Numbered from the stretch's first letter, positions 25,937 to 43,120 are shown. The stretch is DNA of 64,000 bases from Clostridium sp. (GCF_047718555.1 NZ_JBDNRK010000011.1:26209-90208), one strand, 5' to 3'. A program made the numbers and translations. The notes: generated by a model not told the origin, from the sequence alone.

Positions 25937-26809
25937 TTATCTAACTCGACTTAATATATTTAATATGTCCTGAGGAAATTTGTTTGTCTGTACCATCATC
26001 GCTATGCCTGCATCTACCAATATACCTGATTTAGAGTATTCCATTATTTCAGTAGCTATATCTGCATCACTTATACTGCTGTCTGCATCTTGAATCTTAT
26101 CAGATATTTCATTAGTGTTATTAAAACTATCATTGAATCTATTCTCTATTCCACCATAAACACTTCTAGCATGTACTACATTCTCTATAGCTGAATCCAC
26201 TAAACTAAGATTTGCATCTACAGAATTTTTAGATACATCTACAGTATCTAAAGTATTCCCTGTGGAATCCTGCATACCTGTTGTAACATTAAATCTTGGT
26301 ATAACAACACTATCTCCCGGATTTGCACCTACTGCTGCAGTTATTGTGGAGGCTGGATTTTTATTGTCATAAGGCACTCCACTTGTTGGTGAACTGGCAT
26401 TCAATAGTTTAACACCATTGAATTCAGTATTGTTTGCTGTATTATTAATATCCTGTTTTATCTGATCAATTTCCAGCTGAATATTTTTCTTATCTTCATC
26501 TGTGATCCCCGCTGCCCCAGAAGATACAACAAGTTGCCTCATTCTTTGAAGATCATCACTTATATTGTTCATACCACCTTCTGCTGCCTGCAACATACTT
26601 ATTCCATCCTGTGAATTTTTTGCCCCAGCTTGAAGTCCACGTATTTGCATATTCATTTTTTCACTTTTAGCCATAGCATTGGGGTCATCCTGTGCACTAT
26701 TTATTTTCTTCCCTGAACTTAATCTATTTAAAGCTCCGCTTTGATTATTAAGGTTTTTTGTATATGCATAATATATATTTAATGATGCTAAGTTATGACT
26801 TAATCTCAT
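25937..26809 (-). CDS. Short flagellin (290 aa), second flagellin paralogue
   Basis: LNRLSSGKKINSAQDD, LQRMRQL, TEFNG, ISDADIATEIMEY. Confidence 0.92.
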   Translation of the reverse strand: MRLSHNLASLNIYYAYTKNLNNQSGALNRLSSGKKINSAQDDPNAMAKSEKMNMQIRGLQAGAKNSQDGISMLQAAEGGMNNISDDLQRMRQLVVSSGAAGITDEDKKNIQLEIDQIKQDINNTANNTEFNGVKLLNASSPTSGVPYDNKNPASTITAAVGANPGDSVVIPRFNVTTGMQDSTGNTLDTVDVSKNSVDANLSLVDSAIENVVHARSVYGGIENRFNDSFNNTNEISDKIQDADSSISDADIATEIMEYSKSGILVDAGIAMMVQTNKFPQDILNILSRVR

Positions 26810-26847
26810 TTTATCAACTCCACTTAAAATGTTTTTTACTTTCTATA

Positions 26848-26875
26848 ATTATCGAAGAATTTAAATGAAGCTTTA
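26848..26875 (-). promoter_or_regulatory. Sigma-28 promoter of the short flagellin
   Basis: Minus strand TAAA-N16-TCGATAAT. Confidence 0.75.
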
Positions 26876-26921
26876 TACCACTAGAGTAAAATTTTTAATT
26901 TTCCAAATTAACGCCATATAA

Positions 26922-26945
26922 TTCCAAGTCACAGTTACCCTAGTG
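26922..26945. repeat. Palindromic island site, copy 1 (flanks B.X)
   Basis: TTCCAA-GTCACAGTTAC-CCTAGTG; 21/22 identical to 41078-41099. Confidence 0.8.
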
Positions 26946-28139
26946 CAAGATTTTTGCCAACGGAGTGAGCTTGCTACTCTCTTCACCTTCCATTTCTAAC
27001 TTAAATCCATTTATCTCTACATCTTCACTTAATTCAATTACAAGGCATCTAGTACCATTTTTATTAACAACTTGTTTAACTGAACTTAAATCTCTTGGAT
27101 TAATAATTATACTAGTATCTTCATTTTCAATTTTTATGGATTTACTTTTAAAATCTGGAATTATATTTTTTACCTTAAACTCGTAATCTCCTCCACAGAT
27201 TTCTTCAAAAGAACTTTCTAAAACTTCAGTATTCTCTATTCCACTATCTTCTAAAACCCTCTTAATTTCTTTCATATTCATAGTAGGTTCCTCTTCGTCC
27301 ATACTATCTTCTAATTTTTCATTTATTTTTTCATAAATTTCCTGCATAGCATCAGCTTTTATTTTATCACCAATTACATCATTCAATATAGCATTAAATC
27401 TCTCTTTTTCTTCTACAGCAGTCTGTTTTATACTACAATTTAAAACCTCTTCAACAAATTTCAAATTCAATTGTTTTGATTTTGAAGAATAATATACAAC
27501 TTTATTTACATCCATATTTCCATCACTAAAACTAGGAAACATAAATCCATCTAAAGGTGAATTTAAATTTATTGTAGTATCTAAGGCAGAATTAGGTTTA
27601 AAGGCCCTTTCTTCATAGTCAAATTTCAAAACTCTTTTAGGAATATCTACTTTGTTTATACTACATAAAATGAACTGGATAGCTTGTACAGAATCTTCTA
27701 TTGATTCATCTATTTCTTCTCTTCTTTTCTTGCTTCCTTTGTAGTACTCAGCTTTTACAAAATTTATTACTATATCTGTGTCATATGTATAGTTTTGAGA
27801 TATTTTTTCTACTATTTTATCAGCATATTCTGCTACCCTTTCTTCTGAACTCAATGCCTTATATAATACATTTTGTGTACTTTCTACTAAGTTTTCACTG
27901 TTAAAATCCAATTCAAATATTTTTGTATCTATGGTTCCAGTAAGAATCTTTTTAAAATTATTTAAATAAAGTTCCTTTTTCTCAATTTCTAACATATCAA
28001 AATAACTAAGTTCTTTTTTTATAATTTCATTATTGTCTTTTTTTAAATATATACTATATACTTCTTTTATAGACATCATATAGCTGTTTAATTTAAATTC
28101 TTTTCTTAAGTCAGCCAAATCTTTTTTATTCATAATCAT
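26940..28139 (-). CDS. DUF4317-like protein
   Basis: MNKKDLADLRKEFK.. N-terminus, LDGFMFPSFSD, acidic C-terminus; family recognised from memory. Confidence 0.7.
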   Translation of the reverse strand: MIMNKKDLADLRKEFKLNSYMMSIKEVYSIYLKKDNNEIIKKELSYFDMLEIEKKELYLNNFKKILTGTIDTKIFELDFNSENLVESTQNVLYKALSSEERVAEYADKIVEKISQNYTYDTDIVINFVKAEYYKGSKKRREEIDESIEDSVQAIQFILCSINKVDIPKRVLKFDYEERAFKPNSALDTTINLNSPLDGFMFPSFSDGNMDVNKVVYYSSKSKQLNLKFVEEVLNCSIKQTAVEEKERFNAILNDVIGDKIKADAMQEIYEKINEKLEDSMDEEEPTMNMKEIKRVLEDSGIENTEVLESSFEEICGGDYEFKVKNIIPDFKSKSIKIENEDTSIIINPRDLSSVKQVVNKNGTRCLVIELSEDVEINGFKLEMEGEESSKLTPLAKILH

Positions 28140-28343
28140 TACCTCAGCTTTCTCTTTAGGATAATTACATCCTAATAATATAAATTTAAGACTCCAATTT
28201 ATAATTTTATGCCAATAAATATTATTCTACTCAAAAGCTATAAATCCTCTAAAAATTCTATTTGCCTAATACAATGTCCGAATTATAATGCTAATGACCC
28301 TGAGATGATTGTTAAACTAAATTTTCATCCCAAGGGTCATACT

Positions 28344-29943
28344 TTAAGAGTAAACTTCCACAATTTTCTTTTCCTTTTCATTAATTTTAACCGTTACTTC
28401 TTCTACCTTTCCTGCCACTCCTTTAACTTTTCTAAAATCAAATATTAAAAGATAGCCTTGTTCTAACCCATACTGCTCTAAATATTTGCCTAGTTGTACA
28501 AGTCCTTTTTCATGATACTTATCTCCACGCCATATTTTCAGCTCCAATATATACATCTTTTTATTATAAGTTATAGCTATATCAAACCTTTTCTCTTCTC
28601 CACCTTTTCTCTTCTCCACCTTTTACTTCCTTAAAGGCAAAACCTGTGCCATTTATTATAGGACTTAAAAAAGCAAGAAATAATAATCTTCCATCTTCTT
28701 CTAAAAAGCCTTCTCTTCTCTCTGAATACTCATGTTTCATGAAATACTGAAACTTTAATAATACTTTAGCTATATCCAGGCTTCCATCTTTTTTTATAAA
28801 TTCTGATCTTTCATTGTAAAAACCTAAATTCGTAGAAGTCTCTATTATAGAACTCATATAATCGTATATTTTTTGTTCGTAAATTCTATTATGAAGCTTT
28901 AATTTTCCCTGCTCATCCTTAAATATTCCATATATTACACCCAAGTTTATAGTAGAATTATCTTTATTATAAGTAATTTCACTACCATCTACCGTTATCT
29001 TCTTTATCAATTCTTTTAAAGCAATATTATTTTCTAGATTTTTGATCAAACTATCAAAATTAGTATTGCTATCTTTTAAAAATTCTTTAACAGCTCTGTC
29101 CATATATTCCTTATCCCACTTTAGTTGTTTTATATCCATAATTTTTTCATCTATTATTTTACAAAGCTTACTCACAAGAAAAGGATATCCTGAAGTGTAA
29201 AAATAAAGTCTATCTGAAAAATACTCTTTATCTAATTTTACTCCTTTATTTTTTATGTAATCTTCCAACATAGTACCTATTTCTTCCTTTGAAAAACTCA
29301 TATCCACATCAAAATCTGAAGCTATATTCCAAGGACTGTTGTATTTGTGCTCTTCATCTGATCTTATCTTTAGTTTTAAACTCTTTACATCATGTACACC
29401 TGCTAATATTACACTATGAAAAGTCTTATCTTTCCCCGAATTTCTAAGTAAATATTTGTTTCTCAACATACCTAAAAAGCTCAAAAACATCTGATTGTTA
29501 CTGCTTTTATCTACTTCATCTATCATAATTACTACTTTTTTATTAACTTTTATAATGAACTTTGTTATAGCTCTTGATAAATCATTAAATGTCTGAATTT
29601 TATTCTTTTGTTCTTCCAAAAAGTCAGCCAAATCTTCATAATGTAAAAATAAGCTATCAGCCACTATTTGTAAAAATACTTTTACAAAGCGCTGCTCTTC
29701 TTGAAAAATCAAATCTCCTACACCTTCAAAGCTTATTGATATAGTTAAGTACTCAATATTTTTATCAAGGTTTTTTTCAAGCATATATAAAGTGGTTGTT
29801 TTTCCGTACTGCCTTGGTCTGTTTATTATAAAATACTCTTCATTTTCTATGAACTCCATTATATCATTTAATTTTTCTGATATATCTACCATATAATGCT
29901 TCTCTGGTATACATGTCCCCGTAACATTAAATTTCTTTTCCAT
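28344..29943 (-). pseudogene. AAA-like ATPase fused to a PD-(D/E)XK nuclease-like domain, frameshifted by a 16-bp tandem duplication
   Basis: RPRQYGKTT Walker A, IDEVD Walker B. Removing one ACCTTTTCTCTTCTCC copy restores FKEVKGGEEKRFDIAITY..ILELK..G..QL..YL. Confidence 0.88.
28586..28617. repeat. Perfect 16-bp tandem duplication causing the frameshift
   Basis: ACCTTTTCTCTTCTCC at 28586-28601 and 28602-28617. Confidence 0.95.
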
Positions 29944-30067
29944 TATTCTCTCACCCCACTTCTTGTATATATTTTACCACATTACATAACTCTTTAAACA
30001 CAAAAAAACTGCAAAATATAAAGTCTACAGTTTCCTCATTTTCATCCATTACATCAGCTCATTCACA

Positions 30068-30105
30068 TTTACTATTTTTTTCAAGTAACAGTTATCGTTA
30101 CAAAT
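30068..30105. repeat. Palindromic island site, copy 2 (flanks A.Y)
   Basis: TTTACTATTTTTTTCAA-GTAACAGTTAT-CGTTACAAAT. Confidence 0.7.
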
Positions 30106-30107
30106 AA

Positions 30108-30269
30108 GGCATTGAAAAAGGCAAAGAAGAAACTACCGTGAATCTTTTGAAGCTTGTAATCGATACAGAAATTATAGCTAAAAGCACAGGTTTAAGTTTA
30201 GAAAAAATACTTGAACTTAAGAAAAAATATGAAAACCAGAAGTTTAAGGATAATAAAAATAGAGACTAA
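30108..30269 (+). pseudogene. C-terminal remnant resembling Rpn/PD-(D/E)XK transposase-like protein tails
   Basis: GIEKGKEETTVNLLKLVIDTEIIAKSTGLSLEKILELKKK; no start codon, preceded by TAA, begins about 12 bp after the site core. Confidence 0.65.
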
Positions 30270-30299
30270 CATTGAAATATCAATTCTTTGTTAGTCTCT
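30261..30299. terminator. Hairpin between the convergent Rpn remnant and the Y1 transposase
   Basis: AGAGACTAACA / TGTTAGTCTCT 11-bp stem. Confidence 0.65.
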
Positions 30300-30321
30300 T
30301 TGAATATTAGCCTAATAACAT

Positions 30322-30876
30322 TTAACTAAACTTACTAATTGCAGACTCAACAAATCCCTTATACAATTCTCTATTCTTGTCTTTAAAATATGATAATATT
30401 TTATCACTACAACTTAATTTTTCTTTTTCATTACCAATGTACATAGAATAACTACTCCATTTATAAAATTCTGGTTTTTGGACCATCTTTGCTCTTACAG
30501 GATTTAAATGAATATATCTACTGGCCTCTAATACATAATTATCTTCCTGCATTATTTCTGCATTATACCTATCTTGAAATAAATGTCCTACATAATTATA
30601 TTTGTTATTAAAGTTTCTTGCATAAGACTTATTTATTCGGCTCATTAAATACCATATATGTTTTTCATTTGTTTTTATTTGAAGATGAATATGATTTGTC
30701 ATTAGAGTATACACAATAAGCTCATAACTATTCTCATAATAATCCATAGCTTCTTTCAAGTTTTCCAAATAAACTAAATAATCCTGATCATCTTTAAATA
30801 TATCACTTCTCCTATTCCCCCTACAGGTTACATGATACATTGCGTTAGGATACCATAGTAATTTTTTCTTTGGCAT
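30322..30876 (-). CDS. REP-associated-type HUH (Y1) tyrosine transposase (RAYT-like), apparently intact
   Basis: YHVTCRGNRR, MTNHIHL (HUH), GHLFQDRY, YIHLNPVRA, YKWSSY. RBS GGGGAG precedes MPKKK at 30876 (track start 30894). Confidence 0.88.
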   Translation of the reverse strand: MPKKKLLWYPNAMYHVTCRGNRRSDIFKDDQDYLVYLENLKEAMDYYENSYELIVYTLMTNHIHLQIKTNEKHIWYLMSRINKSYARNFNNKYNYVGHLFQDRYNAEIMQEDNYVLEASRYIHLNPVRAKMVQKPEFYKWSSYSMYIGNEKEKLSCSDKILSYFKDKNRELYKGFVESAISKFS

Positions 30877-32363
30877 TGAATTCTCCCCATTCACTTTATT
30901 CTTATAGGAAGGTACGAAAAGAAGTCGCTAATTATTAGTGTTTCATTGGAAACTGCGTTAGTTACTAGGCGTATCCCCGCTTGAAGCCGCACTCTGAGTA
31001 ATCGGTTTGTAGATTGCATGAGAGTTAAGTACCTAATGGCATTGCTTTACGCAGAAGCAATACTGGGTTAGGGGAAAAATGGAAAGTATAAACGTAGAGT
31101 TGAACCTTTGTAATCTTCGTCAAAGAAGATAAGCGTACTGCGAAGTAACAAGCTTAATATGGATAGAAAAGATTGAATCGTCCTCCAATCGTGCAGTAAC
31201 CCATATATCCATCGGAGTAGAGAAGGATGCTTACCCATTTGAATCTAATATTAGTGGAACTTGGTAAGCCCTTTGTGTTCCTCGAGAGAGGTAGGGTAAT
31301 CGTAAGAAAACTACAATACCAGAGAGCAAAGGAGTGTGGAGAAAGCGAATGCCAGTAGGACGAAAGTCCAGGGGAAAGAATAACCTGCTGGATAGGGTTT
31401 GATAACCCGCTCGAAAGAGGGCAGACTTCCACATGGTCATCAACACGAAAAAAAACGTAAAGAAGAATCTTTTTAAGGAGAAACATGTTTTGAAAACTAT
31501 TAAAAAATTTAATACGTCGGCTGTTTCTCCACATATACAGGACTGGACGCTAATTAACTGGAAGAAAGTATGTCAATATGTGAAGAAACTTCGCCAACGG
31601 ATTTTTCGTGCCGAACAGTTGGGACAGAAAAGAAAAGTAAGAAAGCTTCAAAGACTAATGATTAGAAGTAATGCTAATTTGTTAATGTCAATTAAAAGAG
31701 TTACACAAAATAACAAAGACAAACGAACTGCTGGTGTTGATGCTGAGATTATACTCACTTCAAGTGACAGATTGAGATTATATAACCTTCTCAAGGGGTA
31801 TAATATTAAATATATTATACCTAAGCCAGCAAAAAGATTATACATACCCAAGAAAAATGGTAAAATGCGTCCTTTAGGAATACCGGTCATAAAAGATAGG
31901 ATATTTCAAAATATTGTTAAAAATGCTTTGGAGCCACAATGGGAAGCGAGATTTGGACCTTCTTCATATGGATTCAGACCTAAGCGAAGCGCCCAGGATG
32001 CTATTGTCAACCTATTCACTAAGCTATCATCTAGGAGTACAAGGCAATAGATATTTGAAGGTGACTTCAAGGGATGTTTTGATAATCTCAATCATCAATA
32101 TATTATGGATAGTTTAACGGGATTCCCTGCTAAAGAAACTATATATAAATGGTTAAAAGCAGGATATGTTGATAATAACTCATTTAATAATACAGATTCT
32201 GGCACTCCTCAAGGTGGTTTATGCAAAGCTTCGCATAATCCGCCTTATGCAAAGAAAGTAATTATGCAAAGTAAACTTTGAAATATCGCATACTTACTGA
32301 CTCTCTTTTTGGTTTACTTTGCATAATCTTCGTCAATGATAATAGAGTGAAAACTCAAAATTA

Positions 32364-33618
32364 TTGAAGGAGGTATTTCTTTTGAAAAAGAAACCACTTA
32401 ATGAATTATTACAGGACTTAGAGCAGGAACTGCTACGATTAGGCTACACAGAGGGTTCTATGAAATTTTATCATAACCGCTGGGAAAAAATCATAAAATT
32501 CGCAGAAGAGCGTAATGAGACTTATTACTCAGAACAACTGGGGATAGACTTTGTTGAGAAACATTTTCAGATTTTTAAAAAGGATTTCGATAAAACCTTG
32601 TGCCAGAAAGATACTCAAGAACTTCGCATCATCAGAATGATTGGAGATTTCCAACTCCATAATACCGTTTTAAGGCGATACTATAAACACAAACAACTTT
32701 TGATTGACCCTTACTATATGAAGTATAAGTAGTAATTTCAAAAATCACTGCAAATCCAAAGATTACTCAAAGGTGACTGTTGATCACTACGTAAATCAAG
32801 CAGAGCGATTTATGGATTACTTGCTTTCGCAAGGCATATATGATTGTCGTAATATGAGTCTCTCAATTATTCATGGCTATATCAAAACATTAGCTGGATA
32901 TACTTACAAAACTGTGGAACAGAATATCTGCTCTATCCGTGCATTTTTAAGATATCTTCTGGAACAGGACATTTTAAAAACTGATTTAGCTGCAAAAACA
33001 CCAATGGTTCAAGCCCGTAAACAGACAAGAATTCCCTCTGTGTGGACAAAGGAAGAACTAAGCGCACTTATAGGTGCTATTGACCGTGGTAGTCCAAAAG
33101 GGAAAAGGGATTATGCCATTATCCTTCTAGCTTGTATGTTGGGACTTAGGGTTACTGATATCAAGAACCTGACTTTTGACTGCTTTCACTGAGAAGAAAA
33201 AAGGCTGATATTTACCCAGTCCAAGACAAGAGAAACAGTTATACTCCCAATTCGATCCGAATTGGGATGGGCTGTCATTGATTATCTGAAATATGGTAGA
33301 CCGAAGGTTGATTCATCCATCATATTTGTAAGGCATATGGCGCCATTCCTACCTTTTTCAGAAGGAGACCACTTAGCTCAACTAATACAAAATTATATGA
33401 GAACAGCGCATCTGCCTACGTTGAAAAAGCGTCGTGGTATGCACTCTCTCCGCCATACGGCTACATCGAAAATGCTTGAGCAGGGCACATCTCTAGTAGT
33501 CATTTCAGATATCCTTGGTTATACAGATACTGACTCAACATCAGTTTATTTGAAAGTGGATGTAGCTAAACTGAAGGAATGTTGCCTGGATACTGCGGAG
33601 GTAAGTGCCCATGAGTAA
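32364..33618 (+). pseudogene. RIT recombinase A (frameshift near 32720; TGA at 33190-33192)
   Basis: Three ORF pieces join into one integrase: RDYAIILLA..LGLRV.DI, HSLRHT, ISDILGY. Confidence 0.88.
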
Positions 33619-34597
33619 TTATATTTTCAAAGGACCATTTGCAGAGAATATAGAAAACCACGTAAAATTAAAACAGGCTATCGGTTATAAGTACAATACT
33701 GAAGCAGATCATCTATTACGGTTCTCTACATTTACTGCTAAAAAGTATCCTGAAGCAAAAGAGCTTACAAAGGAAATTGTTATGGACTGGTGCTCGAAAA
33801 AGAGTTATGAGGCACAGGCCAATCAGTGTTCAAGAGCTTCTATACTACGGCAGTTTGCTATATATATGGATAGCATAGATATGAATCCATACATAATTCC
33901 AAAAGGCTATTTTCAAGTTGAAGAACACTATATTCCATATATTTATACTGTAGATGAATTACAGCGTTTTTTCAATGAGACAGACAAGTGTCATTATGTC
34001 AACGAATGCCCATATCGACATTTAATTATGCCTGTATTCTTCCGAATGGTTTACTCATGCGGTCTTCGTTCTTCGGAAGCAAGACTCCTTAAAGTAGAAG
34101 ATGTAAATCTTGACACAGGGGTACTAACCATTCAGCATTCCAAGAAGGATAACTGTCGTTTTGTTCCAATGTCTGATGAATTAACAAGATGCTGCCGCGA
34201 TTACTCCAATAATGTACATATGACGTCAAAGCGAAGCGATTTCTTTTTTCCGGGATTGAATAATAAGCCTATGACTATAGTTAATGTATATCATAACTTT
34301 CGACGATTCTTATGGAAGGCTGGTATTTCCCATGGAGGTCGCGGCAAAGGACCTCGTGTTCACGACTTCCGCCATACTTTTGCATGCCACTGTCTTAAAC
34401 AATGGGTTCTCCAAGGAAAGGATCTTTCGGTTTACCTTCCAGTGTTAAAGACATATATGGGACATGATTCCTTTGAGGAAACTGCATATTATCTTAGAAT
34501 GACTGCTGATGTATTCCCGGATATATCAATTAAGTTGGAAGGAAGCTTTCCTGGTATTATTCCTAAGTTAGAAGGTGCTGACCATGAGACCAACTGA
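33611..34597 (+). CDS. RIT recombinase B (tyrosine recombinase), intact
   Basis: YSCGLRSSEA, HDFRHTFA, YMGHDSFEETAYY. Confidence 0.9.
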   Translation: MSNYIFKGPFAENIENHVKLKQAIGYKYNTEADHLLRFSTFTAKKYPEAKELTKEIVMDWCSKKSYEAQANQCSRASILRQFAIYMDSIDMNPYIIPKGYFQVEEHYIPYIYTVDELQRFFNETDKCHYVNECPYRHLIMPVFFRMVYSCGLRSSEARLLKVEDVNLDTGVLTIQHSKKDNCRFVPMSDELTRCCRDYSNNVHMTSKRSDFFFPGLNNKPMTIVNVYHNFRRFLWKAGISHGGRGKGPRVHDFRHTFACHCLKQWVLQGKDLSVYLPVLKTYMGHDSFEETAYYLRMTADVFPDISIKLEGSFPGIIPKLEGADHETN

Positions 34598-35597
34598 TTT
34601 TGCAATCCACCTTACAGGATTTCTGTCCGAATATCTTCCAAAACAAAAGAATGCAAGTAAGAATACGATAGTATCATACCGAGATACTTTCAAGCTATTG
34701 ATTAGATACTGTAATGAGCAGAGAAATATACATGTTGAAAAGCTAAATCTAAGCATGCTAACGCATGAATTGATTATAGGGTTCCTTGAATGGCTAGAAA
34801 CAGATAAAAAATGTAGAATTTCTACTAGAAATCAACGCCTTGCGGCTATACATTCCTTTTTTCGCTATGCACAGTACGAGGAACCAGAAGGAATTCTTCA
34901 TTTCCAAAAGGTAATTTCTCTGCCGATTAAAAAGGCACAAAAGTCATCGATACCCCATCTAACACCTGAAGCTATGCAAGTCTTATTATCTCAGCCAGAT
35001 AAAACTACTGCAAAAGGACGTAGAGATTTAACGCTTTTAGATATCCTTTATGATTCCGGATGTAGGGTACAGGAACTTGCTGATCTTAGGGTACGTGATG
35101 TTGTATTGAGCAATCCGGCAGCTCTTATTCTTACTGGAAAAGGAAATAAAATTCGCAGAGTTCCTCTTATGAAAAATACACTTACTTTATTGGAACACTA
35201 CATTCAGGAGAATTCCCTTAATAAACTTTGGAAAAGCGATTATCCTTTGTTTACAAACAAACAACATAACAAGCTTTCTAAAGAGGGAATTGCATATATT
35301 ATTTCTCAGCATGTACATTCAGCAAGAAGGATCTCAACGATAGTGCCCGAAAAAGTAACACCTCATATGTTTCGGCATAGCAAGGCAATGCACCTTCTTC
35401 AAGCTGGTGTCAATCTAATATATATACGATATTTCTTAGGTCATGAGGACATCAAAACCACAGAAATCTATGCCAAGTGTGATACCGAATTAAAACGTCA
35501 GGCCATTGAGAACGCATATCCTGATTTAGTTGACAGCAACTTACCTGATTGGAGTGAAGATTCAGCGTTGCTTGATTGGCTTTCCAAGTTAAAGTAG
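34584..35597 (+). CDS. RIT recombinase C (tyrosine recombinase), intact
   Basis: YDSGCRVQEL, GKGNKIRRVP, PHMFRHSKAMHLL, FLGHEDIKTTEIYA. Confidence 0.92.
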   Translation: MRPTDFAIHLTGFLSEYLPKQKNASKNTIVSYRDTFKLLIRYCNEQRNIHVEKLNLSMLTHELIIGFLEWLETDKKCRISTRNQRLAAIHSFFRYAQYEEPEGILHFQKVISLPIKKAQKSSIPHLTPEAMQVLLSQPDKTTAKGRRDLTLLDILYDSGCRVQELADLRVRDVVLSNPAALILTGKGNKIRRVPLMKNTLTLLEHYIQENSLNKLWKSDYPLFTNKQHNKLSKEGIAYIISQHVHSARRISTIVPEKVTPHMFRHSKAMHLLQAGVNLIYIRYFLGHEDIKTTEIYAKCDTELKRQAIENAYPDLVDSNLPDWSEDSALLDWLSKLK

Positions 35598-37089
35598 TCA
35601 GATATTATGCAAAGTAAATCCTACAACAATCCATCTAAATCAGTGCTTAGCTAGGTTTACTTTGCATAATCATCAACTTTGCATAAGGATAGCTTGTCTC
35701 ACCTCCGCTAGCCAATATAGCACTACATGGTATGGAAGAAGAACTGGGCATTAGATACTATCTCAATAGAGGAAGACGTTATTTAGCTAGGAATTCGGTT
35801 GGAGTAACAATCTATGCTGATGATTTTGTAGTTGTATGCAAAACAAAAGAAGAAGCCACAAATATGTATGAAAAGCTTAAACCATATCTTGATAAAAGAG
35901 GATTAAAGCTTGCAGATGATAAAACAAAAGTTACACATATTAGTGAAGGATTTGATTTTCTTGGATTTAATCTGAGACAGTGTAAAACTAATAGTAAGAT
36001 GCAACTACTAATAAAACCATCAAAGGCAAGTGTAAAAAAAGCCAGGGAAACGATATAAGAATGTTTTTACACAAATGCTAGGGAAATCAGTTGGAGACCT
36101 AATTGCAAAGCTGAACCCTATAATTAGGGGCATAGGAAACTACTGGTCAAGTCAAGTTGCAAAGAAGATATTCGAAAATCTGGATATGTATATATGGATT
36201 AATACAAGAAAGCATTTGAAACATTTACACCACAACAAGCCATTTAAATGGATTTACAGAAAGTACTTCAAAGCTGATCATACGGGCATCAGCAGAGCTA
36301 AATGGATATTGACAGACCCTCATGATAACAAAACTCAGTTATTTAAGATGAGCTGGATACCGATAGTAAGACATGCTGTAGTTAAGTATAAGAATAGTCC
36401 TGATGATGCCAATTTAAAAGAGTATTTTGAGAAAAGAGACAAAAAGGAGTTCATAAGGGATAATGTTTTGAGTAGAAGGAAAATGGCAAAACGCAGCAAT
36501 TATAAGTGTAGAGTATGTAAACAATCATTAGTTGGAGCAGAGCCTTTAAAGATTAATCAAATTGTACCTCGCATATTAGGCGGTGATGAACTTTATGATA
36601 ACTTAGAATTGTTACATCAAAGTTGTCAGAAACAACATCAATCACTACTTGTAAAATACGGTGGAGGAAGACATTTAACAGCAATAATAAAATACTCCCA
36701 TAATAATCAAGTAGAACTCAACAGCCAAGAAGGATACAGATTAATGAAAGAGACATTTAAGAAATTTAAATACCAACTTGTTTGAGATAAAAGATGGCTT
36801 GAGCCGTATGTTTTGTAAGGAACAAGTACGGTTCTTAGGCGAGAAAGAAGTAGTAATCCTTCCAACTTAGCGGGAACGTACATAGATTTATGTAAATCAA
36901 ATCTATGTACGTTCTTTTTATGTATATATAGCTGGTAATAATGGAAATAATATCATTAAAATATTGTGAGAGGAGTAGAAATATATGAAGATTTTAGTTT
37001 TACCATAGTGTTAGTATAAAAGTGTAGACACAAAGGAATAGATTTACAGAAGTGATAAAATAAAAATAAGGGAAGGAAAGTGTCTACAG

Positions 37090-37359
37090 ATGGGAAGAAC
37101 AGTTAAAAGCTATACAGAAGAATATAAGAACACAATAGTTGAATTATTTAACAATGGGAAAACGTATAAAGAACTTAACAGCGAATATGGAGTACCAAAA
37201 AGTACTATAAGACAGTGGGTAAATAAAGTAGAGAAAAGAAATGATGGAACTGAAGAAAAAGAGAATAATATAAAAGAAATACTTAAAAGAGATGCTCTTC
37301 TTCAAGAGGAGAATGAAATATTAAAAAAAGCATTGTCCATATTCGCAAAGGCAAAATAG
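37090..37359 (+). CDS. IS3 OrfA (HTH)
   Basis: YTEEYK..IVEL..GK....L..EYGV..STIRQW; A7G slippery run at 37323-37330. Confidence 0.9.
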   Translation: MGRTVKSYTEEYKNTIVELFNNGKTYKELNSEYGVPKSTIRQWVNKVEKRNDGTEEKENNIKEILKRDALLQEENEILKKALSIFAKAK

Positions 37360-38258
37360 AAGAAATATATAAGTTCATTGATATCTACAAGCAATATTAC
37401 TGCAGAAAAATAAAAAAGTACTTCAGCATAAAGATAATGTGTAAAACTCTTGGAATAAGCAGAGCTGCATACTATAAGCATATGCATAGAAAGCCATCTA
37501 AATGGGAGAAAGAAGATAAAATACTGGACAAAAGAATATATCAAGAATATAAGGATTCTAAAGGAATATACGGAGCACCAAAAATTTGCGAAAAATTGAT
37601 GAAAAAAGGTTTTAATCCAAGTCTTAAAAGAGTTCAAAGAAGAATGAAGAAGATGAATATAAAATCCATTATAATAAAGAAATGGAAAGCATACAATACC
37701 AGCAAAAAAAGAGTAGAGCAAAAAGAAAATCTAATAAAAGAAAACTTTACAGCCAGTACAATAAACGAGAAGTGGCTTACAGATATAACTTACATTTATA
37801 CACTGGAAGATGGATGGTGTTACCTAGCATCTGTATTTGACTGCTATAGTGCTAAGATAATAGGATGGTGCTTTTCAAAAAATATTGATGCTAGTATGGC
37901 TTTACAAGCTATTAAGAATGCCGTAAATAGTCAAAACCCTAATTACGAAACTCTTATAATTCATAGTGATTTAGGTTCACAATATACAAGCAGTGAGGTT
38001 GAAGGATACTTTAATGAATTAGGCATACGTCATTCTTACAGTAAAAAAGGCTATCCATATGATAATTCACCTCAAGAATCATTTCATGCTTCACTTAAGA
38101 AAGAAGAAAAATTGATGAATAAATATAAGAATTTTTATAAAGCTAAAATATGCATTTTTCAATATATTGAAGCATGGTACAACAGAAAAAGAATACATAG
38201 TAGATCAGGATTTATTACTCCACAACAATATGAAGATATTGCTAGAAAATCTGCTTAA
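37356..38258 (+). CDS. IS3 OrfB DDE transposase (in the -1 frame relative to OrfA)
   Basis: WLTDITY, HSDLGSQY, DNSPQESFHASLKKE, WYNRKRIHS. Confidence 0.92.
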   Translation: MEEIYKFIDIYKQYYCRKIKKYFSIKIMCKTLGISRAAYYKHMHRKPSKWEKEDKILDKRIYQEYKDSKGIYGAPKICEKLMKKGFNPSLKRVQRRMKKMNIKSIIIKKWKAYNTSKKRVEQKENLIKENFTASTINEKWLTDITYIYTLEDGWCYLASVFDCYSAKIIGWCFSKNIDASMALQAIKNAVNSQNPNYETLIIHSDLGSQYTSSEVEGYFNELGIRHSYSKKGYPYDNSPQESFHASLKKEEKLMNKYKNFYKAKICIFQYIEAWYNRKRIHSRSGFITPQQYEDIARKSA

Positions 38259-39753
38259 ATGTTTATAAAAAAAGTGTCTACACTATTGACATAAATCCAC
38301 CAGATATAGATTTAAATAAAGAAGTTAATAAGTGCAAAAGCATGGAAGATTTAGTTGGAAAAAACAGATTAATGCAGCGATTGTTTGGGAATATTATTCA
38401 GCAATTTTTAGAAGCTGAAATGGAAGATCAAAGTATGATAGAGATTTAAATGATGATAAAAATTATAGAAATGGTTATACACCTAAAAACGTTAAGACTA
38501 GTTTTGGTGATGTCAAAGTTGATGTACCTAGAGATCGTAGATCTGAGTTTGAACCTAAAATTGTTAAAAAATATGAGACTGTATGCAATGAACTTGATAA
38601 AAAAGTAATTGGACTCTATGCAAGAGGTATGCCTGTAGATGACATAAAGTCTGAAATTGATGAGCTTTACGGGGTAGATATTTCTCCTGCAATGATCTCT
38701 AAGATAACTGATAAAGTCATGAATACAGCTATTGCTTGGAAAAATAGGGCGTTAGAGCCCGTTTATCCTATTGTATATATGGATGCTATACATTTTAAAG
38801 TTAAAGAAGATCATCAGATTATAAATAAAGCTGCTTATATATGTATGGCTTTGGGCCTGAAAGGTTATAAAGACATCTTAGGCATATGGATTGGTGAACA
38901 AGAAAGTGCTAAGTTTTGGCTGTCAGTATGTAATGACCTCAGAAATAGAGGCGTTAAAGATATAATTATAGGATGTATGGATGGTCTTAAAGGACTACCT
39001 GATGCCATTAAGACTGTTTTCATGATATAAATATACAAAGCTGTATAATTCATCAGATAAGAAACTCTATAAAATATATTGCATCTAAAGATAGTAAAGA
39101 GTTTATGAAAGATCTTAAAAATGTTTATAAGGCTGTTAATGAAAATATAGCGGCTAACGCCCTGTAAACTCTCGAAGAGACGTGGGGAGATAAATATTCT
39201 ATAGTAATAGATTCATGGAATAATAATTGGGAAAATCTATCTACTTATTTCAATTTTCCTCCGGAAATAAGAAAAATAATATACACTACTAATGCTATTG
39301 AGGGATTCAATAGACAATTAAGAAAATTTACTAAGATAAGAACTACATTTCCTACGGATAATTCTTTGAGAAAAGCTCTTTACCTTGCTACAGAACAAAT
39401 TATGACTAAGTGGACTTCTCCATCACCTAATTGGGCTTATACTTTAGCTCAGCTAACTTTGATGTTTAAAGATAGGCTTGAGCAATATATATAAACAATA
39501 CAAATAAAAGCTTGTACTATTTTATTTATGAATAAAAATGCTATTTTTACAAATAATAATAAGAAATAAAAGCTATATAAACTCATTCTTTAGTATTATC
39601 ATATAATTTAAAAATTACTACAGGAATAATTTCCCATAGTAATTTCCAATTTAAAAGTAGCTAGTCTATTTTATTTTACACAAACTTATGAACGTTCTCA
39701 ACTTAGCCGACAATTATTGACATAGTATTTATTTTTAAACCGGTCATTTTATT

Positions 39754-39780
39754 TTCCAAGTCACTGTTACCCTTGCAAAT
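39754..39780. repeat. Palindromic island site, copy 3 (flanks B.Y)
   Basis: TTCCAA-GTCACTGTTAC-CCTTGCAAAT. Confidence 0.75.
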
Positions 39781-39823
39781 TCTGTTTTTACTATCCAATG
39801 CTATAACTTGCACTGTTAATTCC

Positions 39824-39859
39824 TTTACTATTTTTTCCCAAGTTACAGCTACCCTAGTG
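39824..39859. repeat. Palindromic island site, copy 4 (flanks A.X)
   Basis: TTTACTATTTTTTCCCAA-GTTACAGCTAC-CCTAGTG. Confidence 0.75.
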
Positions 39860-39957
39860 TTCTCAGTCTTTGAAGATTTACCATCCGCAACTAATGATTC
39901 TTCAAATTCTATTACGATTTTTTCAGCAGCTACTTCAATAGTAGTATTAGCATCCAT
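39860..39957 (-). pseudogene. N-terminal stub resembling a tyrosine-recombinase SAM-like domain, truncated at site copy 4
   Basis: IEFEESLVADGKSSKTE resembles integrase starts (F..YL..DGKS.KTI.SY); the frame then runs into the site sequence. Confidence 0.55.
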
Positions 39958-39962
39958 TGCTA

Positions 39963-40308
39963 TTACTCCAAATACTTTAGCAATTCTTTGGGTGTTAGTT
40001 CCAGTGATATCAGTAGGCTTATGCTGTAGTCACTGCTAAGAAGCATTAGGGAGTTAGTATATTTGTCACCATTGGAGCAGGTTATTACATCTACATACTC
40101 TGGTAGGTTACTTTCCATGCTTTCTAATAGCTTTCAAATCCTCACCTGTTTCTGCTATTAGAATGTATCCACCTAAATCATGTTCTGCATCTCTTTGATT
40201 TCCGTAGTTTTCATCAAGAATTGCTGCAATCTCCAATGCTTTTGCTACTACCTCCGCTGGTAGATTTTTTAGAAGCCCTTCTTCTCTTTTATTAGCTATC
40301 ATTATCAT
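39963..40308 (-). pseudogene. Hypothetical protein, frameshifted near 40110
   Basis: ..LDENYGNQRDAEHDLGGYILIAE.. continues in another frame as NLPEYVDVITCSNGDKYTNSLMLLSSDYSISLLISLELTPKELLKYLE*, ending 5 nt before the stub ATG. Confidence 0.7.
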
Positions 40309-40796
40309 GGTTATCTCCTCCTTGAATTCTATTTCTATTATTCAAGGTAATAATATATATTTGATTATTCCATGATTACAGGTACAAAAAAATAGCCTAA
40401 GATAGATTTTACTCCATCTTAGGCTTTTACCAGTTCACTGCATTATTTAGATTATGCAGTGAAGATTTTATTACTGATTTTCCGTTAGTCATTGTACTGC
40501 AATAGTTGTTACTACTGCAACCACTACAGAATAGTTTTGCAGTGAACCCAATTTTTCTACTCTAAAAATCGGCACTATCAGCACTATTGTAATCCTATTT
40601 TTTACAGTGTCAACAATGTCGGTATTTTAGGCTTAGAGAGGTGTTCCCACAACATCTTCAATTCACTTCCACTGACTACCTCTATTTTAGAGGACAGTAG
40701 GGCTAATAAGGCTGTGCCCTGATTGCCCTACAAAATACAAGTAGCCTTCATAGCAAAAATGAGCGTCAATAGCCTTTTTTCTATAGTCACTGATGC

Positions 40797-41051
40797 TCAT
40801 TCAAGTATTTTTCCATCTTCTATTTTTCTGATTTCTCCATCTATTGCTTTAACCTGTGCTGCTAAGTCGTTTAGCCTAGCATTTAGTTCTTCCAATTCAC
40901 CTACAGTAAGATTATCATGCTTAGACTTCTCTGCTAACTCTCTCATTTGCAGCAGCTTATCTTCAATAATGTCCAACATCTTCTGCCTGTACTGAACCCA
41001 CTGCAATTCCTTTTCTAATTGTTGCTTTAGTCCTTCTTTTTCATTCATCAC
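40797..41051 (-). CDS. Small coiled-coil protein resembling the flagellin N-terminal D1 helices
   Basis: MLDIIEDKLLQMRELAEKSKHDNLT..LEELNARLNDLAAQVKAI aligns by eye to FliC ALNETTSILQRMRELSVQASNDTLN..RGQIQKEVNQLTSEIDRI. Confidence 0.7.
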   Translation of the reverse strand: MMNEKEGLKQQLEKELQWVQYRQKMLDIIEDKLLQMRELAEKSKHDNLTVGELEELNARLNDLAAQVKAIDGEIRKIEDGKILE

Positions 41052-41064
41052 ATCAACTCATTCA

Positions 41065-41099
41065 TTTACCATTTTTCCCAAGTAACAGTTACCCTAGTG
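41065..41099. repeat. Palindromic island site, copy 5 (flanks A.X; perfect core)
   Basis: TTTACCATTTTTCCCAA-GTAACAGTTAC-CCTAGTG. Confidence 0.8.
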
Positions 41100-41120
41100 G
41101 GGTGCGAAGCAGCCTACTTA

Positions 41121-41678
41121 CTACTTCAATCTTTTTAACTTTTTCTCAATTTTCTCAATTTCATTTTTCATTTCTTTAATTTGTTCATTAATGTAAATAT
41201 TTTCGGTTGCACTCCACCATTTCAATAATTCATCTTTATTATCCTCAACTTTATCTTTATATGATTTAATAGGGTAAATAGAATCCAAATTAGTATAAAT
41301 CTTATGAAAACTTATTAATTTGTCATATTCTGTAGCACTAAGTTTAGCTTTTAAAATATTAATGTAAGCTATCCATTCTTTATCTGAATATATTGTATAC
41401 ATCCCAGTTAATACTATACTAACAACACCATCAATGCAATTTTCCTTTAAATAATTAATATTTTGAGCAGCTTGTGTGTGAAAATCTTCTGATACTTTAT
41501 TTATTCTATTTATTTCATGAAAAATTATATTTTTAGATTGTATGCTATTTCTTCTATTATTCATGATGTTTGTTATTTTAAAAGTAATAAATGAAATAAT
41601 AATTGGAAGGAAAAATCCTGAAATAAATAGTTTATAAAAATCATTGCTTAGTATTACAACTAATACATTTTTCAACAT
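41121..41678 (-). CDS. AT-rich hypothetical membrane-anchored protein
   Basis: 185 aa, N-terminal hydrophobic segment, good RBS (GGAGG); family not recognised. Confidence 0.65.
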   Translation of the reverse strand: MLKNVLVVILSNDFYKLFISGFFLPIIISFITFKITNIMNNRRNSIQSKNIIFHEINRINKVSEDFHTQAAQNINYLKENCIDGVVSIVLTGMYTIYSDKEWIAYINILKAKLSATEYDKLISFHKIYTNLDSIYPIKSYKDKVEDNKDELLKWWSATENIYINEQIKEMKNEIEKIEKKLKRLK

Positions 41679-41755
41679 TTTAATCCTCCATCTAACTTAA
41701 AGAAGCCAGAGTTGTTCACCCTGACTCCTTAATAATCCTATTGTAAGTTTATCAA

Positions 41756-43120
41756 TTATCTTAATAATTGAAGAACTTGTTGTGGTTGTTGGTTAGCTTG
41801 AGCAAGCATAGCTTGAGCAGCTTGGCTAAGAATGTTGTTCTTAGAGAATGTTGACATTTCTTTAGCCATGTCTACGTCTCTGATTCTTGATTCGGCTGAT
41901 GTCATGTTTTCACTTGATGTTCCTAAATTAGCTATAGTATGCTCTAATCTATTACTATAAGCACCTAATTTAGCTCTTTCATCTGATACTTTGTCAATAG
42001 CTGTCTGTATAGTCGTAATAGCAGCTGTAGCTTTAGTAGCTGATGTTACATCTATATTATTTACACCTAAAGCAGCAGAACGCATATCATTTACATTTAC
42101 ATTTATTGTTTGGCCTTCATTAGCTCCTATTTGGAAAGTTAAACTATTATCTGCTACTGTTAATTCAAATGTATCGGCATTTGCTGTTCCTGCAGTATCT
42201 ATTTTTGTACCATCTAAACTTCCACCAGTTAAAGTAACTTGAGCACCATGCTTACTATCTGAAATAACTGCTGTAACACCAGCAGGTAAAGAAGTTATAT
42301 TAGCATTTGTACCAGCTGTAGATGCTCCTACAACAGTTGCTGCAGTTCCTGTAGCAGTAAGGGTATATCCTGAACCGTAATCATTAGCTGTAAAAGTAAG
42401 TGCACCTGCTGCTACAGAAGTAGTAAAACCAATTTCGCTTGATTTTGCATTTATAGCTGCAGCCATATCTGCTGCAGCTGTGTTTTGAGCAAAATTAAAA
42501 GAAACACCATTCAACACTAAGTTAGTTGCACCTGCTGCTGTAACACCTGCAACAGCTGCACCTGCTGCTACTGATGTTTTAGTTGCTGCAGCAGTCACTG
42601 TAATACCAGCATAAGTACCACCAATAGCTAAATCACCAGTGTTTAAAACATTTACTTTATTTCCAGTAGCTGTAAAAGCTGTTACTTCAGCAGCTTTGCC
42701 TGAAGAACCATTCAATAAAGTTTTGGTGTTGAATTCTGTAGTATTCCCAATTCTATCAATTTCACTAGTTAACTGATTTACTTCTTTTTGTATTTGTCCC
42801 CTGTCTGTATCATTTAGTGTATCATTTGAAGCTTGAACTGACAACTCTCTCATTCTTTGAAGAATGGAAGTAGTTTCATTAAGCGCACCTTCAGCAGTTT
42901 GCACTAATGAAATACCATCTTGTGCATTACTTGAAGCTTGGTCTAATCCTCTGATTTGACCTCTCATTTTTTCAGATATAGCTAATCCTGCTGCGTCATC
43001 TGATGCACTATTAATTCTAAGACCTGAAGAAAGTTTTTGCATTGATTTGCTTGCATTTGTAGCATTGATATTTGCATTTCTAATAGCATTGTTAGCTGCT
43101 AAATTGTGATTAATTATCAT
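41756..43120 (-). CDS. fliC: Major flagellin (454 aa)
   Basis: MIINHN..LSSGLRINSASDDAAGLAISEKMRGQIRGL; SRIRDVDMAKEM; QQPQQVLQLLR. Confidence 0.97.
   Translation of the reverse strand: MIINHNLAANNAIRNANINATNASKSMQKLSSGLRINSASDDAAGLAISEKMRGQIRGLDQASSNAQDGISLVQTAEGALNETTSILQRMRELSVQASNDTLNDTDRGQIQKEVNQLTSEIDRIGNTTEFNTKTLLNGSSGKAAEVTAFTATGNKVNVLNTGDLAIGGTYAGITVTAAATKTSVAAGAAVAGVTAAGATNLVLNGVSFNFAQNTAAADMAAAINAKSSEIGFTTSVAAGALTFTANDYGSGYTLTATGTAATVVGASTAGTNANITSLPAGVTAVISDSKHGAQVTLTGGSLDGTKIDTAGTANADTFELTVADNSLTFQIGANEGQTINVNVNDMRSAALGVNNIDVTSATKATAAITTIQTAIDKVSDERAKLGAYSNRLEHTIANLGTSSENMTSAESRIRDVDMAKEMSTFSKNNILSQAAQAMLAQANQQPQQVLQLLR

Follow-up and report, generated by a model that had tools for sequence, protein, structure and literature searches.

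A degenerate group II intron with RIT, IS256-family and IS3-family insertions, and recurrence of its RIT lineage at the PQGG codons of intron reverse transcriptase genes

The window analyzed here, a 64,000-nucleotide stretch of Clostridium sp. DNA, carries a composite locus that lies between two flagellin genes; the chromosome is low in GC and Clostridium-like. The ends of the composite, 30912 (GTACG...) and 39711 (...GCCGAC), were taken straight from the sequence, and its features are as follows.

30912..39711, + strand: entire composite locus, the degenerate group II intron with its RIT, IS256-family and IS3-family insertions
31433..32218, + strand: N-terminal part of the reverse transcriptase (RT)/maturase gene, up to the codons CAA GGT GGT (QGG)
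32213..32218, + strand: S1, the 6-mer GGTGGT, two Gly codons of PQGG and the proposed 6-bp overlap of the attachment site
32219..35692, + strand: RIT element, 3474 bp, on the same strand as the RT gene; intact introns read GGN GGG/CTT GTC across the insertion point
32219..32238, unstranded: 20-bp palindrome, TTATGCAAAG followed by CTTCGCATAA, with one mismatch; in relatives it always adjoins the target on its PQGG side
32239..32244, + strand: S2, TCCGCC, an inverted copy of the 6-mer
32243..32276, + strand: left terminal inverted repeat, 34 nt, with two TTATGCAAAG arms 7 nt apart
32364..33618, + strand: ritA pseudogene
33605..34597, + strand: ritB, open, 330 aa, overlapping ritA by 14 nt
34575..35597, + strand: ritC, open, 340 aa, overlapping ritB by 23 nt
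35655..35688, + strand: right terminal inverted repeat, 34 nt, 85% complementary to the left one
35687..35692, + strand: S3, GGATAG, third copy of the 6-mer, differing at two positions from the GGNGGN of relatives
35693..36785, + strand: C-terminal part of the RT/maturase gene (YADD, GIIM, HNH-like), stop codon at 36783-36785
36799..36871, + strand: domain V (36801-36834) and the 5′ portion of domain VI, which the IS256-family insertion splits
36864..36871, unstranded: 8-bp target duplication AACTTAGC, left copy, holding the domain VI branch-point A
36872..39699, + strand: IS256-family element, 2828 bp including the IS3-family element (own length 1531 bp)
37003..37005, unstranded: CCA target duplication of the IS3-family element, left copy, Pro codon 7 of the IS256 transposase gene
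37006..38299, + strand: IS3-family element, 1294 bp
37090..37359, 37324..37330 and 37437..38258, + strand: IS3 orfA, A7 slippery run and orfB
38300..38302, unstranded: CCA target duplication, right copy
39700..39707, unstranded: 8-bp target duplication AACTTAGC, right copy
39708..39711, + strand: CGAC, the final four bases of the intron

The intron's own segments (30912-32218, 35693-36871 and 39708-39711) amount to 2490 bp once the inserts are removed, and they are colinear, at 85-87% identity, with four intact introns (L001-L004), from which the rebuilt intron departs by three single-base indels and no others. The read-through RT scores 342 bits against TIGR04416 (cut-off 300) and contains the Pfam domains RVT_N, RVT_1 (positions 1-205, matched in a single stretch over the RIT junction), GIIM and HNH. 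It is 625 aa long and aligns without internal gaps, at 83-86% identity, with intact relatives of 625 aa, or of 606 aa from a later start codon. Two lesions were found in the gene, a TGG>TAG change (Trp to stop) at 32048-32050 and an extra T at 36056 that shifts the frame. In its interrupted state domain V reaches 38.6 bits with RF00029, for which the gathering score is 40 and the colinear relatives score 46.7-54.7. None of the Rfam D1-D4 models, which were searched to class the intron, matched this lineage. Its sequence is colinear with that of its relatives, but a search for exon-binding and intron-binding pairs (EBS/IBS) as a sign of homing at this site gave no convincing assignment. With the bacterial group II introns of the RT-maturase-HNH type, whose relatives occur in Clostridium estertheticum, C. 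botulinum and Natronincola, the window copy shares the order RVT_N, RVT_1, GIIM, HNH, a probable domain V, a domain VI that, once rebuilt, is predicted to fold with a bulged A, the length of 2.49 kb and the 3′ AC. It differs from them in its 5′ end, which is GUACG and not the GUGCG of the relatives (the group expectation being GUGYG...AY), in an RT gene that is interrupted by a 3.5-kb insert and bears both a nonsense codon and a frameshift, and in the split domain VI.

The boundaries of the IS256-family element, which begins GGGAACGT... and ends ...ACGTTCTC, were fixed by comparison with the related loci L044, L045 and L047. The element matches NF033543 with 395 bits (cut-off 150) as well as PF00872, and has the Mutator-type DDE transposase, the imperfect terminal repeats and the 8-bp duplication of its family (8-9 bp); compared with the family, the window copy is a wreck, its transposase gene having lost 13 bp after 38430 and 1 bp in the T-run at 39017-39020, and carrying a CAA>TAA change at 39165-39167. 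For the IS3-family element (NF033516, 269 bits, cut-off 160), model positions 1-85 are covered by orfA and 106-369 by orfB (the 269-bit match), and both genes are intact, as is the A7 slippery site that opens the -1 frame into orfB. An orfA (HTH)/orfB (rve) pair, an A7 run for -1 frameshifting, a 3-bp duplication and a right end in CA (...CCA) are common to this element and the IS3 family. The left tip departs from the family's 5′-TG...CA-3′ termini, reading TAGTGT in the window and TGATGC in the siblings L168 and L170, and this TA may impair mobility. Near-identity DNA searches of the RIT and IS3 elements against plasmids returned nothing useful; looking up the exact sequences gave no record for RitC and, for IS3 OrfB, the same locus only.

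It had been predicted from the sequence that four nested mobile elements at this locus can be removed base-exactly, and every figure given for the removals stands, as does the predicted intron length of about 2.49 kb. Cutting 37006-38302 (the 1294-bp IS3-family element and one CCA) restores the start of the IS256 transposase gene, which in the intact relatives (proteins P0121 and P0122, 91-93% aa identity; DNA loci L044-L047, 88%) reads ATGAAG..TTAGTTTTACCAGATATAGAT, ungapped over the IS3 junction. Cutting 36872-39707 (2828 bp and one 8-bp duplication) restores a domain VI that, together with domain V, is colinear with that of the intact relative L004 and adopts the same fold, with the branch-point A bulged. 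Cutting 32219-35692 (the 3474-bp RIT) restores the RT frame, the remainder reading CAA GGN GGG CTT GTC TCA as in the four intact introns. The rebuilt elements are thus colinear with intact homologues over all three junctions. We considered whether the nest could be a chimera of repeats assembled from a metagenome, because the only public runs matching the window are food-fermentation metagenomes and further IS256-like copies occur in the same community. Contigs of four runs cross the junctions at 100% identity, one of them, of 7875 bp, covering 31338-39212, indicating that the structure is not an assembly artefact of the window; moreover, depth equals that of the flanks, and each junction shows the duplication expected of its family and restores colinear host sequence. 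A chimera is therefore extremely improbable.

The insertions are real and exact, but the nest is three deep and not four, with the RIT lying beside the IS256-family element. Of the chronology proposed from the nesting, the intron preceding both the RIT and the IS256-family element, and the latter preceding the IS3-family element, holds. As the RIT and the IS256-family element are separate insertions side by side in the intron, nesting says nothing on their mutual order. The further proposal that damage follows depth is borne out as a trend in the expected direction, with no pairwise comparison reaching p<0.05: disabling lesions number two in the RT gene, three in IS256, two in the RIT and none in IS3, and private replacements at positions invariant among relatives are 17/327, 6/268, 14/450 and 1/118, respectively. 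An IS3 coding region of 1.1 kb would be expected to be free of lesions about one third of the time.

RIT elements were described by Van Houdt et al. 2009/2012 (PMC3414803) and Smyshlyaev et al. 2021 (PMC8138268). Common to them are an overlapping trio of tyrosine recombinase genes, with a long ritA (about 410-430 aa) followed by ritB and ritC, some 3.45 kb between 34-nt inverted repeats, the hallmark of these elements (PMC10214605), and a palindrome adjoining one repeat. The window element conforms to this plan. Its inverted repeats span 3446 bp, corresponding to contigs of 3446-3448 bp in relatives, Pfam Phage_integrase is found in all three gene products, and the order and sizes of ritA, ritB and ritC are the same in eight relatives and in pHG1, with whose RitC the window protein is 46% identical. 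The window copy is nevertheless dead, for ritA is broken. Its 410-aa read-through product (416-429 aa in the eight relatives with intact RitA), in which the SAM-like domain begins only at residue 117, in keeping with the additional N-terminal region (a putative second core-binding region) expected of RitA, is interrupted by a frameshift near 32716-32728 and a TGG>TGA change at 33190-33192, and carries a His>Tyr change at 33520-33522 in a residue invariant among the relatives. In the open ritB, four private replacements fall at invariant positions.

To see where related RITs reside, we examined their flanks in other genomes and metagenomes. Among genomes of several phyla, 20 of the 21 readable flanks of RitC relatives are RT genes cut between (P)QG(G/S) and xxSPxLxN, and at 14 of 15 metagenome junctions containing the TTATGCAAAG arm the RIT immediately follows the PQGG codons of an RT gene in a group II intron. 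Removal of the insert left an open RT frame at all nine loci (9/9), and at three of these the rebuilt protein matches GIIM as well as the Pfam RVT_1 model over its entire length. Two of the loci are flanked by RNA domains of group II introns, and on an annotated RefSeq plasmid the RIT trio adjoins a CDS labelled 'group II intron maturase-specific domain'. Specificity is not absolute, as one relative (L028) lies inside the gene of an IS1182-like transposase. Judged from these junctions, at which the recurrence is observed directly, the PQGG codons of RT genes in group II introns are the specific target of the RIT lineage. Ricker et al. are said to have published the main survey of RIT elements in 2013. 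Within the searchable literature, outside which that survey falls (Ricker et al. 2013, Plasmid 70:226), no earlier report of PQGG target specificity was found.

These data bear on how the locus arose. All three elements, the RIT included, might have landed at random in an intron that was already dead, and have been kept there since they cost the host nothing. The intron does carry lesions of its own, and neither the IS256-family nor the IS3-family element shows any choice of target: IS256 relatives sit in varied contexts and IS3 siblings in unrelated ones, one with a 3-bp CAT duplication. For the RIT, however, chance is excluded by the return to the same codon boundary at those independent junctions, in differing intron lineages and phyla, and the host RT genes are otherwise intact at some loci, so that random landing of all three is unlikely. 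The part of the original prediction that sees in the dead intron a safe landing site is accordingly wrong for the RIT, whose lineage targets PQGG in otherwise intact RT genes too. Since RT genes elsewhere (L025, L011 and L015, in other genomes) are full-length and open once the RIT is removed, the RIT may itself have killed the window RT and need not have arrived after its death; on this inference it would have entered the intron while the RT was still functional. Neutral persistence within dead DNA is a reasonable reading for the IS256-family and IS3-family elements.

Shared descent offers another explanation for the association, if an intron already bearing the RIT was dispersed by retrohoming as one composite, the RT being supplied in trans. 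Group II introns accept cargo in domain IV, as is known from targetron work, and this tolerance would favor such a spread; at a single locus, the order RIT into intron, then intron into site, is possible. Three observations speak against it: the host RTs belong to clearly different lineages, with flanks such as NLSPLLSNIMLNELDKE, VISPILANIYLHYVLD, IISPLLANIALHGME and ILSPLLSNIVLNELDWW; similarity among the RITs is 70-80%; and the single genome of Neobacillus sp. PS3-12 contains four near-identical RIT copies in four different RT lineages and in both orientations. We regard spread by shared descent as highly unlikely. The comparative evidence instead suggests that related RITs inserted independently in different lineages and in both orientations. 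We therefore favor, with a probability of roughly 0.85, a single degenerate group II intron that received three insertions, a RIT at its lineage-specific site, an IS256-family element and then an IS3-family element. The IS256-family element would have transposed into domain VI, generating the 8-bp duplication, and the IS3-family element later into codon 7/8 of its transposase gene, generating the 3-bp duplication. Point mutations, afterwards or partly before, would have put the RT, the IS256 transposase and ritA out of action, leaving the IS3-family element as the only one whose genes are all still open.

Every RIT copy has the same layout of 6-bp target, 20-bp palindrome, inverted 6-mer, element and 6-mer again, and the 6-mers follow the target, since at QGS targets (GGTTCT in L013, GGTTCG in L120) all three copies are alike. 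This uniformity points to conservative site-specific recombination through a 6-bp overlap, presumably by way of a circular intermediate. In the mechanism that we propose, the RIT would integrate directly after the PQGG codons of the RT gene, the attachment site of its lineage, with GGNGGN as the overlap. The partner would be a circular RIT whose joined ends form a palindromic double core (arm, 6-mer, arm, arm, inverted 6-mer, arm), either core of which could be used. Use of either core would account for the occurrence of both orientations, which are about equally frequent among oriented junctions (14 versus 17), for the palindrome on the PQGG side and for the three 6-mers. At L128, between two tandem RITs, the order repeat, 6-mer, palindrome, inverted 6-mer, repeat has the predicted form of the junction, and the archetypal RIT of pHG1 shares this layout, with a perfect 32-bp palindrome abutting the inverted repeat. 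No circular form, empty site, excision joint or intermediate state was found in the assembled contigs of the runs that hold the window, nor any excision joint in the assembled contigs of runs of an apparently active relative. A strand-bias rule, by which the inner 6-mer would equal the outer one in one orientation only, was rejected on the 31 oriented junctions (seven same and seven different in one orientation, eight same and nine different in the other). The GGATAG of S3 in place of GGNGGN needs either two substitutions or another origin, for example a carried-over footprint as in Tn554/SE elements.

The Tn554, SE and GInt elements (PMC10214605) likewise have several tyrosine recombinases acting together, and are site-specific, with no ordinary target duplication and with 6-bp end sequences that may differ. 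They belong to other protein families and have other gene sets, the window RIT having no TnpC or Srap counterpart; the RIT, by contrast, possesses symmetric inverted repeats and a palindromic module, and a strand-biased footprint rule did not hold for it. For RIT elements, target specificity has been given as 'not tested' and transposition has never been reproduced (PMC10214605), and the only targets mentioned in the searchable papers, a Tn6049-like transposase gene and radC (PMC3414803), are anecdotal. Compared with these published RITs, the window lineage has a defined target, the PQGG codons with a 6-bp sequence that is present three times. Targeting of one element by another has a precedent in the group IIC-attC introns, which reside in integron attC sites (PMC3001079); in these, as in twintrons, one selfish element lands on a conserved feature of another. 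The RIT differs from them in being a tyrosine recombinase element that invades the coding sequence of a motif in its host element's own enzyme.

As a nest the locus is unremarkable, since cleanly separable nested insertions have often served to order events. RITs, by contrast, are widespread and have been on record since 2009, and a defined attachment site would make their movement directly testable and would account for their many copies over distant phyla. For annotation, insertion at this site accounts for many group II intron RT genes that are recorded as 'split' or 'partial' and adjoin integrase trios. It also provides a clear example of a selfish element specialised on the stretch that encodes a catalytic motif of another. 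It is an even bet, in our estimation, that RITs in general are circle-integrating, site-specific parasites of mobile elements, each lineage having a 6-bp overlap and arms matched to the codons of a conserved enzyme motif of another element; the targets would include PQGG in intron RTs, RYYG in IS91-type Y2 transposases, the Walker B motif LLIIDE of the IS21 helper IstB, and rve integrases. If so, their landing sites would be abundant, horizontally travelling and neutral to the host, and RITs would be natural killers of introns and insertion sequences.

The composite at 30912–39711 reads directly as the 5′ end of a group II intron, the reverse transcriptase (RT) frame from 31433, three tyrosine-recombinase genes (ritA, ritB and ritC of a recombinase in trio, or RIT, element), the remaining RT, pieces of an IS256-type transposase enclosing an IS3-type element, and the last intron bases. 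Each of the four elements belongs to a known family.

Elements of the composite at 30912–39711 (+) and their family matches.
30912–32218, 35693–36871 and 39708–39711 (+): group II intron; read-through RT, Pfam RVT_N, RVT_1 (model 1–205, one stretch), GIIM and HNH; NCBIfam TIGR04416, 342 bits (cut-off 300)
32219–35692 (+): RIT; Pfam Phage_integrase in each of the three recombinases; NCBIfam Xer-like, under the Xer cut-offs
36872–39699 (+): IS256-family element; read-through protein, Pfam Transposase_mut; NCBIfam NF033543, 395 bits (cut-off 150)
37006–38302 (+): IS3-family element and one CCA; Pfam HTH_Tnp_1 and rve; NCBIfam NF033516, 269 bits (cut-off 160)

A flagellar locus surrounds the nest, with flagellin genes on either side (25937–26809 and 41756–43120), and the strands are opposed, the host genes lying on the minus strand and all four elements on the plus strand. 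Small ORFs without matches, DUF4317 and an AAA-ATPase-like gene share the stretch from flagellin to flagellin (25937–43120) with the nest, and this stretch has the appearance of a variable island within the flagellar locus. A Y1 gene (IS200-like or REP-associated tyrosine transposase-like; 30322–30894, minus strand; NF047646, 62 bits, under the cut-off of 80) starts 17 bases from the intron 5′ end, and the 8.8-kb composite now lies between this gene and its upstream region. No second copy of the intron, RIT, IS256 or IS3 element was found elsewhere within the window. The public sequencing runs matching the window were food-fermentation metagenome runs only; the nest was reproduced at 100% identity and flank-level depth in contigs of four of them, which contained no alternative joints at the nest.

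The original prediction that the elements can be removed base-exactly, at sizes that it specified, holds in every number: when the rebuilt elements were aligned to intact homologues, they were colinear with them across all three junctions. Joining the three intron segments gave a 2490-bp intron with 85–87% DNA identity to four intact introns (L001–L004) and three single-base indels in total, including the +T at 36056 that causes the RT frameshift. The read-through RT is 625 aa long, and its intact matches, of exactly 625 aa or of 606 aa with a start codon further downstream, are 83–86% identical and align with zero internal gaps, the RIT junction reading TPQGG-L-VSP. Because intact introns have CAA GGN GGG CTT GTC TCA at this junction, the RIT insert is exactly 32219–35692 (3474 bp). 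The RT lesions are a Trp replaced by a stop codon and the frameshift, between ARETI and KNVF. At the IS256 junction, the intact intron L004 has GGCGAGAAAGAGGGAGTAATCCCTCTGACTTAGCCGAC and the rebuilt window intron GGCGAGAAAGAAGTAGTAATCCTTCCAACTTAGCCGAC; both fold into domains V and VI, the latter with an A bulged out seven bases before the 3′ end. In the interrupted state, the Rfam domain V/VI model at 36799–36871 scored 38.6 bits, slightly under the threshold of 40. The ribozyme part has likewise drifted; the intron 5′ end (30912–30921) is GTACGAAAAG, where all relatives have GTGCGACAAG, and a T is inserted in domain I at 31095. In the intron protein, the HNH-like region (36530–36640) carries Gln at the expected catalytic His positions (INQIVP, SCQ), which is a lineage trait and not decay, since Gln is also found there in most intact relatives.

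The IS256-family element was compared with intact relatives (proteins P0121 and P0122, 91–93% identity; DNA loci L044–L047, 88% identity), whose transposase starts M-K-x-L-x-L-P-D-I-D with one Pro only. Taking out 37006–38302 (1294 bp and one CCA) restored this sequence base for base. The element spans 2828 bp between GGGAACGT (36872) and ...CGTTCTC (39699) and is flanked by an 8-bp duplication, AACTTAGC. Its lesions comprise the loss of 13 bp after 38430 and of 1 bp in the T-run at 39017–20, as well as CAA>TAA at 39165–67. At its left end (36874–36914), the first 16 bases are repeated inverted just inside (GAACGTACATAGATTT ... AAATCTATGTACGTTC), forming a hairpin that is kept in L044–L047. 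IS3 siblings (L168–L170), 96–97% identical in DNA and located in unrelated contexts, share the right end ...AAATCCA with the window copy, and a 3-bp duplication was seen at one of them. The left end of an IS3-family element normally must be TG. The window copy has intact genes and an atypical left tip, TAGTGT at 37006–37011 versus TGATGC in the siblings, that is, three changes in six bases.

The nesting of the four elements is real, although its depth is three: the intron received RIT and IS256 as separate insertions, and IS3 lies inside IS256. A relative chronology had been proposed, of which it stands that the intron came first and that IS3 is later than IS256, but nesting gives no order for RIT versus IS256. 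Damage, which had been said to follow nesting depth, is graded in the expected direction, but none of the pairwise tests among RT, RIT, IS256 and IS3 reached p<0.05, and at the pooled rate, the absence of lesions from the IS3 coding region of 1.1 kb is unsurprising. Measured against eight intact relatives, ritA is frameshifted, contains a stop from TGG>TGA and has Tyr at a position where His is invariant.

Damage in the four elements (disabling lesions; private replacements where relatives are invariant).
RT: 2; 17/327
RIT: 2; 14/450
IS256: 3; 6/268
IS3: 0; 1/118

The dead intron had also been viewed as a safe landing site. For the RIT, this idea gives way to active targeting, with the RT gene of the intron as the target. 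Scanning RitC relatives in one genome per species yielded 38 loci, 30 of which were 64–89% identical over the matched segment, in Firmicutes, Deltaproteobacteria-like lineages, a spirochaete and candidate phyla; many of the loci are contigs of 3.45 kb, which repeats present in multiple copies would be expected to give. The RIT lies inside an RT gene at 20 of the 21 readable flanks, one side ending ...G(T/V)PQG(G/S) and the other beginning xxSPxL(A/S)N. Only L028 departs from this: there, the element follows a GGAGG sequence within an IS1182-like transposase gene. Read in the RT sense, the layout is constant: the target 6-mer (GGNGGN), a 20-bp palindrome (arms TTATGCAAAG and CTTTGCATAA), the inverted 6-mer, and then the element, in which 34-bp inverted repeats enclose the rit genes, whose orientation may be either, followed by the 6-mer again and the remaining RT. 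The third 6-mer of the window RIT, GGATAG, is odd compared with GGNGGN. At targets with QGS instead of QGG, all three 6-mers change accordingly (GGTTCT in L013, GGTTCG in L120). Removal of the RIT, palindrome and 6-mer copies regained an open RT frame in 9/9 loci. The rebuilt RT was full length, with RVT_1 in one stretch and GIIM, at L025, L011 and L015, and the first two are flanked by group II intron RNA domains. In the Dehalobacter locus L025 (2514–10983), the intron D1–D4 match lies ~2 kb farther from the RT start than expected; this intron may carry a second insertion or adjoin a second intron. One Neobacillus genome has four near-identical RIT copies in four different RT lineages, and on a RefSeq plasmid of Bacillus sp. 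S3 the trio adjoins a CDS annotated as a group II intron maturase-specific domain protein.

Metagenome contigs scanned for the exact palindrome gave 120 loci. Junctions with the window's arm sequence were of the RT type in 14 of 15 cases; those with one arm mismatch were so in 14 of 22 by the automatic test (15 with L104, read by eye), and those with two or more had different targets. The two RIT orientations were about equally frequent (14 versus 17), and the larger set did not bear out a strand-bias rule for the 6-mers that the first loci had suggested. Other RIT-like elements (metagenome contigs L089, L090, L125, L055 and L138; L111; L048) have the same 20-bp palindrome with different arms and 6-mers, and occupy conserved positions of other mobile-element genes, for example after RYYG of IS91-type Y2 transposases (TACGGA), after the Walker B LLIIDE of IstB of IS21 (GATGAA) and within an rve integrase (AATCGC). 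Further groups have the 6-mer TGGCCG, or GGCTTG with the arm TAATGAAAAG.

The archetypal RIT of plasmid pHG1 likewise has a palindrome abutting the inverted repeat, a perfect one of 32 bp, and Van Houdt et al. noted an "overlapping palindromic sequence" (PMC3414803). According to the papers searched, RIT movement has never been reproduced and target specificity was "not tested" (PMC10214605); hairpin intermediates have been proposed (PMC5737581). The literature searched, to which Ricker et al. 2013 does not belong, makes no mention of RITs together with group II introns or reverse transcriptase.

Judging from these junctions, RITs probably integrate by recombination of a circle carrying a double core site with a 6-bp overlap. 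Joining of the ends in an excised circle would create the series repeat, 6-mer, arm, arm, inverted 6-mer, repeat. This series would contain two identical core sites facing opposite ways, and either of them could recombine with a target sharing the 6-bp overlap to give exactly the observed products. Recombination by either core would place the rit genes in either orientation, leave the spare core (palindrome and inverted 6-mer) always on the side of the conserved PQGG codons, and generate three copies of the 6-mer. Variation of the 6-mer is mostly at the two wobble positions, which fits overlap mismatches being tolerated or segregated. No RIT circle or empty site is shown; at L128 (4640–4700), two different RITs stand in tandem with a joint of the predicted form, repeat-GGTGGT-palindrome-ACCACC-repeat, and the target of the second was apparently the junction of the first. 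L141, L149 and probably L023, L086 and L091 have the palindrome at both RIT ends and lie between two upstream RT halves in head-to-head arrangement, and a single copy, L171 (NZ_CP039728.1), has no palindrome and two downstream RT halves as flanks. The two configurations resemble the reciprocal products that inversion between copies of opposite orientation would give, and RITs may therefore rearrange genomes. The nest itself is ordinary; the result that deserves follow-up is the target of the RIT.
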